DNA from: Candidatus Eiseniibacteriota bacterium
GTDB lineage: Bacteria > Eisenbacteria > RBG-16-71-46 > CAIMUX01 > VGJL01
DNA length: 64,000 bases
Reading direction: 5' to 3'
Assembly (NCBI GenBank): GCA_041946735.1
Contig: JBHGAY010000008.1
Location: 1 to 64,000, forward strand
Position numbers: made by a program. How positions within the stretch are numbered: position 1 is the stretch's first letter; every line of letters begins with the position of its first letter. Below are positions 15,001 through 21,000 of the stretch, in pieces.

Positions 15001-18000
15001 CGCTCCGCGCGCCGTCATCGCAAGAGCGAGATCAGGAAGTTGAGCCGCCCGATCAGGAGCGAGACGCGCCCCATGACCGTGTAGCCGAAGGCCGCGCCGA
15101 AGCCGAGCATCAGGAACCAGACCCCGAGGCGGCTCGCTCCTCCGACGACTCCCTTGTGCTCCACCGAGAAGAAGAAGTAGACGAGGACCGAGAGCACCCC
15201 GACCAGCAGGATCACATTGTTCAGCACGCCGAGCATTCCCGCCGAAGCGGCGAACGGCACGATGGTGCTCTGCATCTGCGGCAGCACCTCGCCGTGCAGC
15301 TTCTGCACCATATTGATCCCGACGTAGTAGCCGATGTAGATCGCGAGCGACGCGCGGGCCCACCACGCGATCTTCGGGATGTAGCGGGTGTAGAGGTTCA
15401 GCCCGATCAGGGCGGGGATCAGGAGGTCCGCGTTGCCGGCAAAGTCCTGCCGCAACGGATCGATCAGATTCGGCCGGATGGTCTGGCTCGCCTCGTTGCC
15501 GATGTAATAGCCGAGCGAGACGCCGGCGAAGAGCGACTCCGCGAAGCGGAAGAACGGGTTGTCCTTGTACAGGAAGCTGAAGATGCAGAGGGTCAGGAAC
15601 GCCGCGATCCAGAGTCCGAGAATCGTCATCGTCCCGTCCCCCCGAAGCGCGTGCGCCGGCGACCGAGCACGAACGCCAGGTTGCCGAGGATGATGAACAC
15701 CAGGATGACCGTGTGGTCGATCGTCTGGGCGTCCATCCCCTTGATCGCGGTGTAGAGACCGGCCCGGTCGTAGACGGTGTGGAAGTTCGGGTAACCGCCG
15801 AGCAGGAGCGCCTCGTACTCGGAGGCGCCCTTCAGCCCTCCGAGGAGGCCGACCATCTGCCCGGCCTGCAGGAACGCGTAATACTTCGGCGCGGAGACGG
15901 CCGTGCAGCCGACCGCCACCGGGATGTGGAACTGGGCGTTGATCAGGTTCGCCCACCACTCGCCGATGATGCCGGTGGCGAAGCTGACGACCAGACGCAT
16001 GTCGTCGTAGTTGTGCACCTCCGCCATGAGCGGCAGGGTTTCGAGCGGGGTGCCGTAGCGATCGGTCGGGAACACTCCTCGGATCTCCTCGCCGATCTGT
16101 TTCATCGACGCCTGTCCGCCGGACTTGTACCCGAGGTGCACGTAGTCCACGCCGTAGGTCAGGCCGGGGAAGTCGGGCGTCACGCGGGCGAGCGACTGAT
16201 CCGCCATCGCGAGGCCGCCGATCGGGTAGAGCGCGAGGATGACGACACGCAACTTTTTCGAGAAGGCGTGGCGCAGAACGGCGTCGGCCATCGGGTCGTT
16301 CTCCGGCGCGGTCGAGGGACCGTAGTCGAAGGAGACCAGGATCACCTGGCCCGCCTCCATCTTCTCGATCCGGTCGTAGAGCGCCGACACCGACGGGGTC
16401 ACGGAGACCCGGAATCCGATCGGGAAGAGGATCGGCAGTGCCGTGCCCACGCCGATCAGCAGGAAGATCCACCTGCGATCGATCGACATGATCCGGTTGA
16501 GCAGGGCGAGCATTGCGGCCTCCTCCTAGTCCGTCTTCTCGAGACCGAGGTGGGAGCGCTCGATCCCGGTGATGACGCGAAGCGAGAGGCTGGCCGCTCC
16601 GAGCGCCGCGCCGATGATGATCCCTCGCTGGGCGGCGGCATTCGGCCAGTTGACGAGCCAGTCGGTGAACGCAGAGAGGTACGGTCGGCCGCCGAGGATC
16701 GATTCGCCGAGCGGGATCCGGCCGAGCATGACGACGCCGGCGGCGACCAAGAGGATCGTCGCCTCGAGATTGCGGGCGCGGAAGGCTCGGAAGGCGGCCG
16801 ATGCCATGAAGAAGGCGAGGAGGCTGAACATCGTCGCCTGGAGCGGCGTGAAGATGAAGTCCGTCCCCCACTGGAACGGCGTGCGCCCCCCGTCCGGCGT
16901 GTAGCCGATCCCCTGGAGGCCGAAGAGCTGGAAGGCGCCGGCGAGCCCTGCGATCGCCATGCCGAAGAGGCCCGCGAGCAGGAAGGCTCCATATGGCCAC
17001 CCGCTCTGGCGCCGCTCGATCTTGCGGATGTTCGACTGCACGACGTTGACGACGCCGAGCAGGATCGCGAACGAAGCGATGATCACCATGTAGCGCTCGA
17101 CCCGGTCCCGCCCGTTCGACACCCAACCCACGCTTGGGTCGATGAAGAAGGAGACGATCGGGACGAGGCCGGCGATCGCGGTCAAGAGCAGCGGGAACTG
17201 CAGCCGAAAGAACGCCATTCCTCTCCTACCTCCGGTCTTTCCTTGCTTCTCGAGCCTCGAACTTCCACCCGCGCTACTGGATCGTCAGGATTTCGCGAAG
17301 CCGCGTCACCCCGAACGCGAGGAGCGCCGTGGCGATGACGATGTAGAGCCCGACGACCGCCTTCGTGATGTCCTGTCCTTTGATGCTTCCGAGCTGCGCG
17401 GGCTCTCGCGACAGGTACGCTCCCGCCGCGTACAGCTCCTCTCCGATCAACGTGTAGTCGCAGGCGCAGACGAAGAACGGCAGCTGCGCGATTTCCGCCG
17501 TCCCGGCGATCTGGATCGCTCCGGTCGACTGGCCCGTTTCGGCCAGGAGCAGGCTCTCCGCGTAGAAAGAGCCGATCAGGAAGTTCGCCGCCGGCTTCTC
17601 GCGGACCATCTGGCCCGAGACCGAGGCGGTGTAGGCGAATTGGTCATAGGTGACGTAGTGGACGAGGCTGTCGCGGAAGAGATCGGGCCGGCCTTCCTGC
17701 GTGTACGCCTCGCGGACCGTCTCCCGGGCGGCCGCGAATGTCAGCGGATCCTTGTTGGGGACATCGAGCTCGGTGTTGTAGCGAGCGGTCATTCGCGCCA
17801 CGTGGCCCAGCACGGCGAGACTCGCGATCGTCTGGTTCTCGTCCAGGCTCATGATCCCCGGGACGTAGAGCACCTTCTTGCCCAGTTCCGTCGCGCGCCC
17901 GACCGCCTCGTCGATCGCGTTCAGCCCGGCGATCTTGCGGATGAACAGCTTCCCGCCGCGCCGTGCGCGGGAGATGTAGGTGAGAACCAGGATGCAGAAG

Positions 18001-21000
18001 AGCAAGAAGAGGATAAGGGCGTTCAGGCGGTCGAAGTTCAAGAAATCCATCGCGTCTCCTCTTCGGCTCCCTTCGAGGGCCAGGCAGGCGGTCGCCGTCG
18101 CCTCACGGCTTCGACTCGGTCTCGATGCGCGGGAAGAGCGGCGCTCCCGGGCGGATCTTCACGCCGGGCGCGAGCAGTCCCCAGGCGATCCGGTCGGAGG
18201 CGAGCGGCGTCGAGACGAGCGCGCCCGGATCGTCGAGCACGCCGAGCCGGTAGAGAGCCTCGCCGCACTTCGCCGGCATCACGGGCGAGAGGAGCGTCGC
18301 GGCGAGGCGCAGCGCCTCCGCCGCCGTCCAGAGCGTCGGTCCGATCGCCTCCGCTCCCTCGGTCTTGACCGCCTTCCAAGGCGCCTTCTCCTCGAGGTAG
18401 CGGTTCGTCGCCCGCACCATCTGGAGCGTCTCCTCGATCGCCGCGTGGAGCTTCAGCTCCGCGATCATGCCCGGGACGGCCGAAGCGGTCGCCTCGCCGA
18501 TCGCGCCGAGCCGCCCCTCGGGGCTGTCGGGCTCCGCGATGCCTGCCGGGCTCGCCGCGCCGCTGCCCGCCGGGCCGGGCATCGTCCCGCCGAAGTAGTT
18601 CTGCACCATCCTCTCGACCCGGTTCAGCGCGTTGCCGAGGTCGTTGGCCAGGTCGGAGTTGATCCGATGGATCAAGGCCTCCTCGCTGAAGCTCGAGTCC
18701 TGACCGAGGACCATGTCGCGCATCAGGAAGTAGCGGAACGCGTCGTGCCCATGGCGCTCCGCCATGTCGATCGGCTTCACCACGTTGCCGAGCGACTTGC
18801 CCATCTTCGTCTCCCCGACCAGCCACCATCCGTGGGCGAGGATCTGGCGCGGCATCGGAAGGCCGGCGCTCTTCAGCAGCGTCGGCCAGTAGACCGTGTG
18901 GGTCGTCAGGATGTCCTTCCCCATCAGGTGCAGATCGGCCGGCCACCACGGCGATCCGTCGGGCCGCGTGCGCCCCTCGACCGCGCTCACATAATTGACG
19001 AGCGCGTCCAGCCACACGTAGGTGACGTAGTCCGGATCGAAGGGCAGGGGGATTCCCCATTCGAGTCGGCTGCGCGGGCGGCTGATGCAAAGATCGCCGA
19101 GCGGCTTGCGCAGGAAGCCGAGCACCTCGTTGCGCCGGGTCTCGGGGAGGATGAAGTCCGGGTGGCTCTCGATGTGCTCGATGAGCCAGTCCTGGTACTT
19201 CGACATCCGGAAGAAATAGTTCTTCTCGGAGAGCTTCTGCGTGGGACGGTTGCAGAGCGGGCAGAGATTGCCGGGCAGGAGGTCCTTCTCCGTCCAGAAC
19301 CGCTCGTCCGGTTCGCAATACCATCCCTCGTACTGATCCTCGTAGACGTCGCCGGCGGCCCGGATCCGCTCGATGAACCAGGCGACCACCTTCTTGTGGC
19401 GCTCTTCGGTCGTGCGGATGAAGTCGTCGTTGTGGATCTCGAGGCGCTTCCAGAGAGCCTTGTAGCGGACGGCCATCTCGTCGCAATGAGTGAGGGGATC
19501 GACGCCGCGCGCGCGCGCCGCGTTCTGCACCTTCTGGCCGTGCTCGTCGACGCCTGTCAGGAAGAACGTGGCGTCGCCCATGAGGCGATGGAAGCGGGAG
19601 AGGACGTCGGCAAGGACCGTGGTGTAGGCATGCCCGATGTGCGGCTCGTCGTTGACGTAGTAGATCGGCGTCGTTACGTAGAATGAGCCTTCGGGCATTG
19701 GCCCCCCTCTCCCTCCTTCGAGTCGGCGAACGCGCTCCGCCCGGCCACGGCTCGAGTGCGGGCCGCGGGCGCGGGTGCGGGCGCATGCGCGCGAGGCTAC
19801 ACGGTCTTCACGTTCCCGATCAAGGAAACGGGGCTGCGGAAGGAAAAGACTCCCGCCGTCCGCCTTCTCGCGCCTTTCCGGCAGGTCGCTCGCGCCAGTC
19901 CGGCGCGCCCGCTGGCGCCAGTCCAGCGCGCCCGCCGGCGCCTGTCCGGGCTGCCGCTCACGCCTGTCCGGCGGGCCGTTCGCGCCTGTCCGGCCGGCTA
20001 TCGGCGCGAGGCGGCGTCGAGCGCGATCGCCACCGCGTCCGCTTCGTCGCGCGCCCGGAGCGTCTCCTCGCCGGTCGTCGATCGATCGGCGGGCCGCATC
20101 TCCCAGGAGTCGAGGAGCACGACCGGACGTCCCGTCTTGCGCGCGAGGGCGATCTCACTCAACGTGCCCCATCCTCCGCCGATCGCGACTACCGCGTCGG
20201 CGGTCAAGACGAGGATCGCGTTGCGCGCTTCGCCCATCCCGGTGAAGACGCACAGCTCGACCGATTCGTTGGGAGGAGAGTCGTGACGATCGCGTCCCGG
20301 GAGGACGGCCAGCGTCCGGCCCCCCTCTGCGCGCGCGCCGCGGCAGGCCGCCTCCATCACCCCTCCTCGCCCGCCTGTCAGGACGACCGCCCCCGAGCGG
20401 GCGAGCAGTCGGCCGACGGATTCGGCGCGCGCGAGCACGGCGGGGGACGGCGCTTCGCCTGGACCGGAGACGAGAATCACAGGGGCGCGAGCGTGCACGG
20501 GAGCGGGATCAAGGACGCGATCGAGAGGCGGCGTCGGTTCTCCCATCGGCCGGAATCCTCCTTGGCGGTTGCGCCGTTGCTGTTGTGAGGCGGTTGCGCC
20601 GTTGCTGTTGCGAGGCGGTTGCGCCGTCGCGGTTGTGAGGTGGTTGCGCCGTCGCGCGCTCGCCTTCACTGCTTCTGCGCGGCCGACATGCGCCGCGCGG
20701 CGCGCGCGCGTGGCGGCGCGACGCGAGCGCCCGCGCCGGGGCGCCGGCCGCCGCCGAGGCTCGGCGCCGGCACGCGTGCTAGTATCGCCCTTCCCGGGTA
20801 GCGTGGCGAATGCCAGGGACGAACAGGATGCCGAACGAAGGGAGATCCATGCGGGAACGTGTGCGCGAGTCCTCGCTCGACAACGGTTTGACGATCCTCA
20901 CCGTCGAGAATCCTGTCAGCCCCACCGCAAGCCTTCAGGTCTGGTACAAGGTCGGCTCGCGCAATGAGCGGCCCGGAATCACCGGCGCTTCGCACATCTT

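Follow-up and report, generated by a model that had tools for sequence, protein, structure and literature searches.

Known systems for comparison

In Type VII ABC, or 'mechanotransmission', systems such as MacB, FtsEX and LolCDE, a cytoplasmic ATPase works with membrane subunits that hold a folded periplasmic domain between two membrane helices. Their targets are macromolecules of the periplasm, and solute import is not their task. A different arrangement is found in group II ECF transporters, where many S-components share one energising module.

A four-gene module (S1 to S4) in a window of 64,000 nucleotides, the whole stretch analysed here, from a Candidatus Eiseniibacteriota genome can be compared with both. 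Its likeness to Type VII ABC systems would be one of working principle only: it has no ABC ATPase, FtsX or MacB domain, its ATPase is of actin/Hsp70 fold, and it has four different membrane subunits. As in group II ECF transporters, there is one energising set per genome for several diverged modules coded elsewhere, but the two are unrelated in sequence and the module has four subunits with two Rossmann-like domains. Because the module is nearly confined to genomes that bear this ATPase, we read it as a probable exchangeable component in a novel type of ATP-driven cell-envelope machine.

S1 and its five paralogues in the same genome match the Pfam model DUF6754 (PF20539), a catalogued family without function, structure or paper; S2, S3 and S4 are left uncovered by Pfam. 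A literature search found no paper mentioning 'DUF6754' or 'PF20539'.

The four genes in the window

The genes are packed tightly on the minus strand at positions 15015-18050.

17274-18050, minus strand: S1, core-form DUF6754 subunit, 258 aa (PF20539, E 3.2e-114)
16526-17218, minus strand: S2, polytopic membrane subunit with about six hydrophobic segments, 230 aa (open reading frame and hydropathy)
15626-16513, minus strand: S3, bitopic subunit, 295 aa (open reading frame, AF2 model and alignment)
15015-15629, minus strand: S4, polytopic membrane subunit, 204 aa (open reading frame and conserved motifs)

Intergenic gaps measure 55 nt and 12 nt, the S3 stop and S4 start overlap as ATGA, and a purine-rich, Shine-Dalgarno-like stretch can be read from the sequence at every start. 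S1 matches PF20539 over its whole length (model positions 4-255 of 257; 380.9 bits, cut-off 27), and so do the S1 proteins of the other five copies. A 71-row alignment gives S2 the conserved motif P..ATMFALLAFF.ASAAYRAFRAR, and S4 has the conserved motifs FSFLYKDNPFYKFAEH and YFFFS.EHKG...FGASFGYTVMAR.SLLIGR. Pfam and NCBIfam searches assigned S2-S4 to no family, the sole row at E<=1 being TM_PetC (13.8 bits), and at the same threshold found no ion-pump, carrier, transporter or glycosyltransferase family for any of S1-S4. A search for solved-structure relatives of the subunits, S2 included, found none.

Six cassettes in one genome

A search with PF20539 locates six sites in the genome, on contigs C71 (the window), C10, C11, C12, C19 and C29. 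The same six are found by tblastn with each of S1-S4, and the order S1-S2-S3-S4 is kept in all six. Every match falls inside the ranges given for six equally ordered cassettes in a preliminary description of this DNA, which is thereby confirmed on this point.

In five of the copies, S1 begins with a signal peptide and an extra N-terminal domain, both absent from the window copy. The profile of this ectodomain matches solved fn3 domains (fibronectin, E 1e-10; single titin fn3 domains, 1e-7), as expected from the secreted fn3-like domain previously reported on five DUF6754 copies. The metG stop lies just 52 nt upstream of the window S1, so the ectodomain has no space there. Since this S1 does without it, the ectodomain is not essential for the basic function. 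The findings strongly imply that the window copy is a satellite module in the ectodomain-less core form.

The module had been proposed to diversify by swapping its ectodomain. This can be rejected within the genome, where all five ectodomains belong to one fn3 family and the window copy merely lacks it. Ectodomains do differ in the wider family. There, S1 carries fn3 arrays, BamB-like beta-propellers, OmpA, parvulin PPIase or GT-C domains, always N-terminal of DUF6754, and variants of S3 have CARDB or HEAT-repeat inserts. None of these added S1 or S3 domains matches the Pfam solute-binding protein families. The six copies are not the product of a local expansion: they represent old subtypes that are also present in other phyla. 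Mean identity among five of the six paralogues (C11 left out) is 55% for S1, 40% for S2, 38% for S3 and 43% for S4.

Conservation across phyla

Of 75 loci, drawn from at least 12 named phyla, 71 show the genes in the order S1-S2-S3-S4, and 4 have S1 without nearby S2-S4. A natural fusion, P0235, joins S3 (residues 2-278) to S4 (369-585; hhalign probability 100%, E 6e-56). The conserved order, the start/stop overlap and this fusion mark S1-S4 as a conserved unit that very likely assembles in the inner membrane.

The S3 profile matches 4348 representative clusters (50% identity) at E<=1e-10, and this, with the absence of any paper or solved relative found, agrees with the earlier view of a large family without a studied member. 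PF20539 occurs in 91 of 101 genomes sampled from the window's own phylum (including the unpublished G220), with 1-9 matches each; the range is the one given before, when the count had been 54 of 61 Eisenbacteria. The identities found here differ from those reported before. Across the 75 fetched loci, S1 is 52-85% identical to the window S1, rather than 70-89%. S3, said to exceed 50% across Eisenbacteria and Zixibacteria, is 33-45% identical to the window protein in Zixibacteria and reaches 50-65% in the nearest loci alone (L012-L018).

Predicted topology and folds of S1 and S3

The AF2 model of S1, built from a 76-row alignment, has a pLDDT of 91.2 and a pTM of 0.86, in place of the poor fold (pLDDT 56) reported for this subunit. 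It consists of a membrane helix (6-30), a Rossmann-like a/b domain (about 43-214) and a second membrane helix (217-245). Positive charges (RARRGGK..RK) follow helix 1 in the sequence. The signal peptide and fn3 domain that precede helix 1 in the paralogues would place the a/b domain in the cytoplasm and the short N-terminus outside.

S3 is likewise modelled with high confidence (pLDDT 95.0, pTM 0.91), with a Rossmann-like a/b domain (about 40-248) between membrane helices 13-29 and 256-290. This arrangement agrees with the model reported before, and again there is no specific fold match. The second helix holds the invariant residues H267 and N278. The sequence reads DRR ahead of helix 1 and RRRTR behind helix 2, and by the positive-inside rule the a/b domain should face outward. 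The two Rossmann-like domains would then sit on opposite faces of the membrane.

Fold matches of both proteins are generic, with flat lists in which Sir2, RCK, USP and dehydrogenases are mixed at equal Z. The best Z is 10.4 for S1 (122 chains at Z>=8) and 9.8 for S3 (20 chains at Z>=8). At the level of fold, the a/b domains resemble RCK/KTN domains of K+ channels and transporters (S1 with KtrC, Z 10.0; S3 with TrkA, Z 8.9) and the N-terminal domains of GT-B glycosyltransferases (S1 with LpxB, Z 10.4, PseG, 9.4, and MurG, 9.1), but with identities of just 4-16% and no sequence match. The loop behind strand 1 of S1 reads VPGIMSLD instead of GxGxxG.

A single-copy cytoplasmic ATPase set

The module is accompanied by p375, a protein of 375 aa that adjoins, or is fused to, an actin/Hsp70-fold ATPase of the GlmL/MutL family. 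Such a set, comprising a PF13941 gene and p375, is present once in the genome and is coded outside the window on contig C11, beside another cassette. Two small proteins usually join the set. Either the GlmL-like protein, p375 or the small protein sm115 adjoins the cassette in 18 of the 75 loci and in the C11 cassette of this genome. The fusion is represented by an Atlas cluster of 876 aa, in which PF13941 is found in 98% of members and whose alignment to p375 has a TM-score of 0.92.

The C11 ATPase matches PF13941 (E 1.3e-118) and, weakly, MreB-like_C, BcrAD_BadFG and Hydantoinase_A. It retains DCGSTTTK and DIGGATTD, which we take to be the ASKHA phosphate motifs. A role as helper of coenzyme-B12 glutamate mutase can be rejected: against the GlmL/MutL model NF040745 the protein scores 204 bits where the cut-off is 475, and no gene for the mutase E subunit (Met_asp_mut_E) turned up in this genome (94.8% complete). 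It also falls short of Or-4 of ornithine degradation (NF040744; 193 bits, cut-off 600). At about 635 aa it is longer than these models (448-459 positions), and it is linked to membrane genes.

In p375 a barrel-sandwich domain at the N-terminus is combined with a tail of KOW-like type; its mean column identity is 67%, and no solved relative was found. Residues of about 52-118 weakly match RnfC_N (E 5e-4) and NQRA_N (1.7e-3), the N-terminal barrel-sandwich hybrid of RnfC and NqrA, but these matches are under the Pfam cut-offs and confined to one small domain. The membrane subunits of Rnf and Nqr had no match in six frames of the genome.

Among 603 genomes of three phyla, which are related and hence not independent, S1 and p375 occur together in 165, just one of them in 5 and neither in 433. 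The Nitrospirota sample has S1 in 28 of 201 genomes and p375 in the identical 28; the genes are adjacent there, so part of this agreement is due to linkage. The window's own phylum (n=101, including G220) has 90 genomes with both, 1 with S1 only, none with p375 only and 10 with neither. In the third phylum (n=301), where the two genes are frequently on separate contigs, 47 genomes have both, 2 have S1 alone (one of these below the cut-off), 2 have p375 alone and 250 have neither. p375 was also present in all five further genomes checked, in one of them (G005) some 650 kb away from the cassettes. It has about one full-length copy per genome, compared with 1-9 matches of S1. The module had been described as a self-contained four-subunit machine. 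Instead, the counts strongly imply that it is not autonomous and is found almost strictly with a single-copy cytoplasmic ATPase set.

Proposed mechanism and alternatives

Most likely, S1-S4 assemble into a complex and act jointly with the ATPase set. We tentatively read this complex as a module of an undescribed ATP-driven envelope system that acts on envelope macromolecules. The cytoplasmic Rossmann-like domain of S1 would be the docking face for the shared set, a role proposed because S1 is the best conserved subunit among the paralogues. The membrane core may be built from S2 and S4, and the outward domain of S3, together with the S1 ectodomain if present, would act outside the membrane. 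ATP-driven movements could thus be relayed over the membrane onto an extracytoplasmic macromolecule; they might serve to export, assemble, fold or anchor proteins or glycans of the envelope. The S1 ectodomains and S3 inserts of the wider family speak for such outward action on macromolecules. Import of small solutes is ranked less likely. The neighbouring genes of the cassettes show no consistent functional theme.

Import would nevertheless suit some of the data. The cassettes could be substrate-specific permeases of a modular ATP-driven importer, energised by the shared GlmL-like/p375 set, with the outward domain of S3 (and the S1 ectodomain) capturing a nutrient. There are 1-9 cassettes for a single ATPase set, old diverged subtypes coexist as is typical for substrate families, S2 and S4 are polytopic, and solved solute-binding proteins (3rot, 4yle) appear in the S3 fold list at Z 7.8-8.1. 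An ABC ATPase gene also lies behind S4 in L063, L080, L081 and L083, and in L048 another gene of this cluster, its fifth member, lies upstream of S1. We still hold an importer to be rather unlikely: S3 has one Rossmann-like domain where a binding protein has two lobes, the core-form S1 of the window has no capture domain, transporter families are unmatched by every subunit, and the fn3, beta-propeller, OmpA, PPIase, GT-C, HEAT and CARDB domains found as ectodomains or inserts bind proteins, cell wall or glycans. Far more doubtful is the transporter or energy-coupling unit first put forward, taken as self-contained, free of any ATPase and powered by an ion gradient. In its favour, five of the six cassettes, including that of the window, have no neighbouring ATPase gene, the invariant H267 and N278 in S3 helix 2 are polar, and S1 occurs without p375 in two or three genomes. 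Against this stand the 165 joint and 5 single occurrences of S1 and p375, and the lack of any match to Rnf/Nqr in six frames or, at E<=1, to a family of ion pumps or carriers. The cytoplasmic domain of S1 is moreover the most conserved part, which indicates a cytoplasmic partner.

The Rossmann-like domains might alternatively be GT-B-like half-sites of a membrane-bound complex that makes a lipid-linked glycan or lipid, with the ATPase as activator. GT-B N-terminal domains (LpxB, PseG, MurG) are among the top fold matches of S1, P0081 is an S1 protein with a fused GT-C domain (PMT_2/DUF2142), and candidate lipid genes, named by eye, follow the C10 cassette (CDP-alcohol phosphatidyltransferase-like) or, in L080 and L086, lie ahead of the set (CdsA- and diacylglycerol-kinase-like). 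However, few loci have such neighbours, Sir2, RCK, USP and dehydrogenases equal the GT-B domains in Z, no glycosyltransferase family is matched in sequence, and domains on opposite sides of the membrane cannot make a single GT-B site; biosynthesis is therefore improbable. By analogy with the link of MreB to its membrane partners MreC, MreD and RodZ, the cassettes could also be passive anchors or scaffolds that tether an actin-fold cytoskeletal assembly to the wall or outer layers. This is consistent with the fold clan of the ATPase, including its weak MreB-like_C, BcrAD_BadFG and Hydantoinase_A matches, with the bitopic form of both S1 and S3, and with P0041, an S1 whose OmpA ectodomain is wall-binding. 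We regard it as very improbable. GlmL relatives are known to help enzymes and are not known to form filaments. The high conservation of p375 and of four distinct membrane subunits suggests a mechanism beyond a mere tether, and the module is also carried by archaea and one Bacillota-labelled genome, despite their very different envelopes.

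A Probable Module of an ATPase-Linked System

The four genes at 15015-18050 of the window probably encode an inner-membrane complex, and this complex would serve a system driven by a GlmL-like protein and p375 as one of its several exchangeable modules. The GlmL-like protein is an ATPase of actin/Hsp70 fold (GlmL/MutL family, PF13941), and p375 is its 375-aa partner. The four subunits are called S1 to S4 here, and their genes together a cassette. The genes and their flanks are as follows.

Genes of the window cassette and its flanks
13960-15018, minus strand: DUF1028-TPR gene, flank on the S4 side (DUF1028 E 2e-72)
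15015-15629, minus strand: S4, 204 aa
15626-16513, minus strand: S3, 295 aa
16526-17218, minus strand: S2, 230 aa
17274-18050, minus strand: S1, 258 aa, full-length DUF6754 (E 3.2e-114)
18103-19698: metG, flank on the S1 side

S1 scores 380.9 bits against PF20539 (cut-off 27) and covers profile positions 4-255 of 257, which makes it a full-length member. The gaps within the cassette are 55 nt and 12 nt, and S3 and S4 overlap in the sequence ATGA. At the sequence level, S2-S4 match nothing in Pfam and NCBIfam, transporter, pump and secretion families included, beyond a 13.8-bit hit to TM_PetC. The nearest catalogued entity is the Pfam family DUF6754, which has no assigned function, and a literature search for "DUF6754" or "PF20539" found no mention of either.

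The ATG of the DUF1028-TPR gene overlaps the S4 stop, also as ATGA, which makes co-translation with the cassette probable. The N-terminus of its product resembles a signal peptide. The gene has one paralogue in the genome, on contig C17, and no relative of it lies beside the cassette in any of 75 related loci. A scan of the cassette region gave no promoter-like sites. A terminator scan gave one terminator-like site, fewer than expected by chance and not a convincing terminator, and no Rfam family was matched between 9000 and 25000.

Six Copies in One Genome

PF20539 matches at six places in the genome, and tblastn with each of S1-S4 as query returns the identical six places in identical order. 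The order S1, S2, S3, S4 on one strand is therefore found in the window and at five other places, as a preliminary description had reported for the same intervals. In five copies the N-terminus of S1 consists of a signal peptide and a further domain of ~100 aa. The label "fn3-like" for this domain holds: a profile of 49 sequences, of which this genome contributes four, hits fn3 domains of known structure (fibronectin, for instance, at E 1e-10), and 14 of the 49 match PF00041 as single sequences. High-GC relatives show very long reading frames across S1, but these are not genuine; the proteins there consist of signal peptide, fn3 and DUF6754.

The window S1 carries neither addition, and the 52 nt between metG and S1 leave no space for an ectodomain. 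The same arrangement of metG followed by a core-form S1, of 261 aa, is found in the nearest relative, locus L012 (S1 85% identical), which indicates that the short form is a conserved state and not an annotation slip. The proposal that the copies diversified by swapping their ectodomains does not hold within this genome, where five carry the fn3 domain and the window S1 is without it.

The age of the copies can be read from a tree of 80 concatenated cassettes (FastTree, LG+gamma, midpoint root, local supports). Only at the root of this tree do the six copies share a common ancestor. The C19 cassette groups with cassettes of Zixibacteria and Ignavibacteria (support 0.995 and 1.0), and the C12 cassette is sister to that group (1.0). 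The C11 cassette groups with one cassette from Ignavibacteria and one from Dormibacterota (1.0), and the window cassette with those of L012 and L015 (0.975). Placement of the C10 and C29 cassettes is weak (0.64-0.84). Where Zixibacteria and Ignavibacteria have tandem arrays, the tree groups first cassettes with first, second with second and third with third, which suggests that three old subtypes have been maintained together there. The six copies are old subtypes and not the product of a recent local expansion.

Occurrence in Other Phyla

A pattern scan that took a single genome from each species gave 618 confirmed S1 relatives, of which 75 loci were kept. S1 is followed by S2, S3 and S4 in 71 of these, as far as the fetched DNA reaches. 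In the remaining four (L025, L032, L049 and L064) S1 stands alone, with no S2-S4 inside 7 kb. A gene for an S49 (SppA-like) peptidase follows S1 in L025, across a masked stretch of 100 N, and the apparent fusion of the two is an artefact of that run. Sixteen loci hold two or three cassettes, head-to-tail in all except L071, where two are convergent; L022, L054, L065, L067, L069 and L077 are among those with three in tandem.

Named sources of the loci include Eisenbacteria, Zixibacteria, WOR-3, Ignavibacteria, Latescibacterota, Nitrospira, Neomarinimicrobiota, Cloacimonadota, Acidobacteriota, Lentisphaeria, Dormibacterota and a genome labelled Bacillota. Most of the genomes sampled from its own phylum have the system, which extends to parts of a dozen or more further phyla, Nitrospira among them. 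Searched against 1.84 billion representative proteins, the S3 profile gives 5435 matches at E<=1e-3, 4348 at E<=1e-10 and 1509 at E<=1e-30. The 4348 are representative clusters at 50% identity, but none of the system's members has an assigned function, a solved structure or a paper on it.

An example of two subunits joined in one polypeptide can be found in P0235, a natural fusion of 598 aa with S3 at 2-278 and S4 at 369-585 (hhalign probability 100%). It supports directly that S3 and S4 would act together. Two other candidates were rejected: P0199 (472 aa) as an S3-S4 fusion, and S1 proteins of 628 and 646 aa as S1-S2 fusions.

An ATPase Set with the Cassette

Clustering of the reading frames that flank the 75 cassettes shows three more genes as repeated neighbours, in 18 of the loci. 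The first encodes a GlmL/MutL-family protein of ~610 aa (PF13941, E 1e-123; 12 loci), the second p375 (10 loci), and the third a protein of ~115 aa, sm115 (12 loci). p375 has weak matches to the barrel-sandwich families RnfC_N and NqrA_N and to KOW. In the genome itself all three lie beside the C11 cassette.

The ATPase set on contig C11
C11:100657-107857 (locus L008): eight-gene cluster of a c23-type small membrane protein, sm115, GlmL-like (635 aa), p375 (373 aa) and S1-S4
C11:105562-106941: GlmL-like gene, the sole PF13941 gene in the genome
C11:103903-105015 (L008:6897-8018, minus strand in L008): p375 gene, the sole one in the genome

The genome thus holds one ATPase set for six cassettes, on another contig than the window cassette and not adjacent to it. 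Evidence that the two belong together can be provided by their distribution, in which S1 and p375 co-occur almost strictly. Among 201 genomes of Nitrospirota, the same 28 carry both, and the genes are adjacent there. In the own phylum (101 genomes, including the unpublished G220), 90 carry both, one (G289) carries S1 only, none p375 only, and ten neither; these ten are scattered over five families. In a third phylum (301 genomes) the counts are 47 with both, two with S1 only (one of them under the cut-off), two with p375 only and 250 with neither, and the two genes are frequently on separate contigs. Because kin genomes are not independent, such counts overstate the number of separate events. 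p375 was also found in five of five further genomes checked, within 650 kb of the cassettes. There is about one full-length p375 per genome, against one to nine S1 matches.

The sequence of p375 is 67% identical in the column mean over 11 sequences, with an invariant N-terminus MxH.YTPGL. Its alignment has long invariant blocks across phyla (QGIFGxGGE, GVAITG.E, GATQIRAGVxRPE), a strictness unusual for a protein without a known family.

Fusions of GlmL and p375, or fusion-like paralogues, also exist in nature. A cluster of 876 aa in the Atlas has PF13941 in 98% of its members and aligns to p375 with a TM-score of 0.92, and reading frames of ~870-920 aa with a p375-like part occur in seven genomes (G216, G218, G249, G257, G262, G285, G297). 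Several genomes of the own phylum have such a frame on top of a separate p375.

The GlmL-like protein retains DCGSTTTK and DIGGATTD, which we take to be the two phosphate-binding motifs of the actin/Hsp70/sugar-kinase fold. Its database name does not seem to describe its role here, as it scores 204 bits where the cut-off for true GlmL is 475, and the genome (94.8% complete) has no match for the glutamate mutase E subunit. The literature matches listed for GlmL hold the letter string "glml" only, with PF13941 and TIGR01319 absent among them.

These results bear on the idea, put forward in the preliminary description, of a self-contained four-subunit machine. S1 occurs nearly always with the p375/GlmL-like set, so that a self-contained, ion-driven unit is now very improbable. 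The unit itself is real and widespread; what falls away is its autonomy. The cassette would depend, as a module, on a larger system linked to the ATPase, and its function is inferred. Hardly more probable is a passive anchor for an actin-fold assembly.

Structure and Kinship of the Subunits

S1 and S3 share an architecture, in which an a/b domain lies between two helices. Both are bitopic, and both models, built from family alignments, are of high confidence. The S1 model (pLDDT 91.2, pTM 0.86) has helices at 6-30 and 217-245, with a six-stranded a/b domain at 43-214 between them. In the S3 model (pLDDT 95.0, pTM 0.91) helices at 13-29 and 256-290 enclose an a/b domain at 40-248. The S1 domain is predicted to be cytoplasmic, because in the paralogues helix 1 comes after signal peptide and fn3, with positive charges on its far side. 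Invariant residues of S1 are R38, G51-G57, E165-E171, Q180-T184 and D198-E205, all in the cytoplasmic part when this is taken as residues 31-218. For S3, the charges flanking its helices suggest a domain that faces outside. S2 and S4 have about six hydrophobic segments apiece.

The fold searches for S1 and S3 give only generic Rossmann-like lists. For S1, 122 chains reach Z>=8, led by LpxB (Z 10.4, rmsd 3.2, 128 aligned), Sir2A (10.1) and KtrC (10.0), and Foldseek against the PDB gave nothing at E<=1e-3. For S3, 20 chains do so, with MT0777 at 9.8 (rmsd 3.6, 140 aligned) and TrkA at 8.9. In RCK/KTN nucleotide-binding domains, which are Rossmann folds, strand 1 is followed by a GxGxxG loop. S1 resembles them in fold at Z 9-10; its own loop reads VPGIMSLD, with G65 as the sole invariant residue. 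The overlap of the two lists, together with the shared architecture, makes a very old kinship of S1 and S3 conceivable. As paralogue pairs with internal pseudo-symmetry, S1/S3 and S2/S4 were rejected (hhalign probabilities 1.1% and 0.5%).

Sequence profiles of S1-S4 and p375, run against all solved structures, found none below E 0.07, and S2 and S4 did not match the Rnf-Nqr model (PF02508) at E<=1. A six-frame search of the whole genome for Rnf-Nqr gave none, where four of 14 control genomes match. PADLOC anti-phage models at E<=0.01 gave no family for S1-S4, the GlmL-like protein or p375, and look-up of S4 in the Atlas returned only unnamed clusters without a model.

Outward Domains and Possible Function

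S1 is the most conserved subunit. Mean identity among five of the six paralogues (C11 left out) is 55% for S1, 40% for S2, 38% for S3 and 43% for S4, and over 77 cassettes it is 58, 44, 39 and 46%. This is expected if every S1 fits one shared cytoplasmic partner, and we infer that the paralogues do.

Additions to S1 are invariably N-terminal to DUF6754. Among the best 120 long relatives listed, 23 carry a BamB-like PQQ beta-propeller and 21 a Pfam-recognised fn3 array; OmpA, a parvulin PPIase and a GT-C domain (PMT_2/DUF2142) occur once each. S3 varies by CARDB or HEAT-repeat inserts: P0137 and P0251 carry a CARDB domain or a long HEAT-repeat array. These long forms came from an exhaustive profile search, a word-index search having given none. 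The domains added to S1 and S3 are of kinds with affinity for proteins, cell wall or glycans; no Pfam solute-binding family is matched by any of them. This tilts the reading toward a role in handling envelope macromolecules and away from import of solutes, though only weakly, since the window S1 has no ectodomain and solute-binding proteins are present in the flat S3 fold list. The latter fits a modular importer of the ECF kind, which is on balance unlikely but the most serious of the alternatives. A biosynthetic complex for glycans or lipids is improbable.

In its fuller form, the account of S1-S4 as a module of the GlmL-like/p375 system holds that movement driven by ATP is relayed by the module to the outside, where it would act on envelope macromolecules; this is plausible but falls somewhat short of an even chance. 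The nearest analogy for such movement may be the ABC systems of the MacB/FtsEX type.

More tentatively still, the cassette may be the swappable membrane part of a new class of ATP-driven trans-membrane machines with an actin/Hsp70-fold (GlmL-type) engine in place of an ABC, AAA+ or P-type motor. A single engine in the cytoplasm, made up of the GlmL-like protein and p375 along with two small proteins, would engage the conserved cytoplasmic domain of S1, whichever of several four-subunit modules that S1 belongs to. The engine would set the outward domains of the modules in motion, and these would handle envelope proteins or glycans. If the ATPase link is real, a membrane machine would be run by an ATPase of that fold; we know of no precedent for such coupling among transport or envelope systems. 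The layout of one engine with many modules is of interest in itself. Together with outward domains of types familiar from protein folding, wall binding and glycan transfer, it suggests that many uncultured lineages may build their envelopes by a route not so far recognised.

Some S2 variants of ~590-615 aa (P0123-P0131; L069:13174-13485, L077:12955-13266) have a large extra part with no Pfam match. In L063, L080, L081 and L083, from Neomarinimicrobiota, Fidelibacterota and Lentisphaeria, a gene for a DrrA-like ABC ATPase, which may belong either to the system or to a separate ABC-2 exporter, directly follows S4. L048 has a member of this gene cluster too, but on the upstream side of S1.
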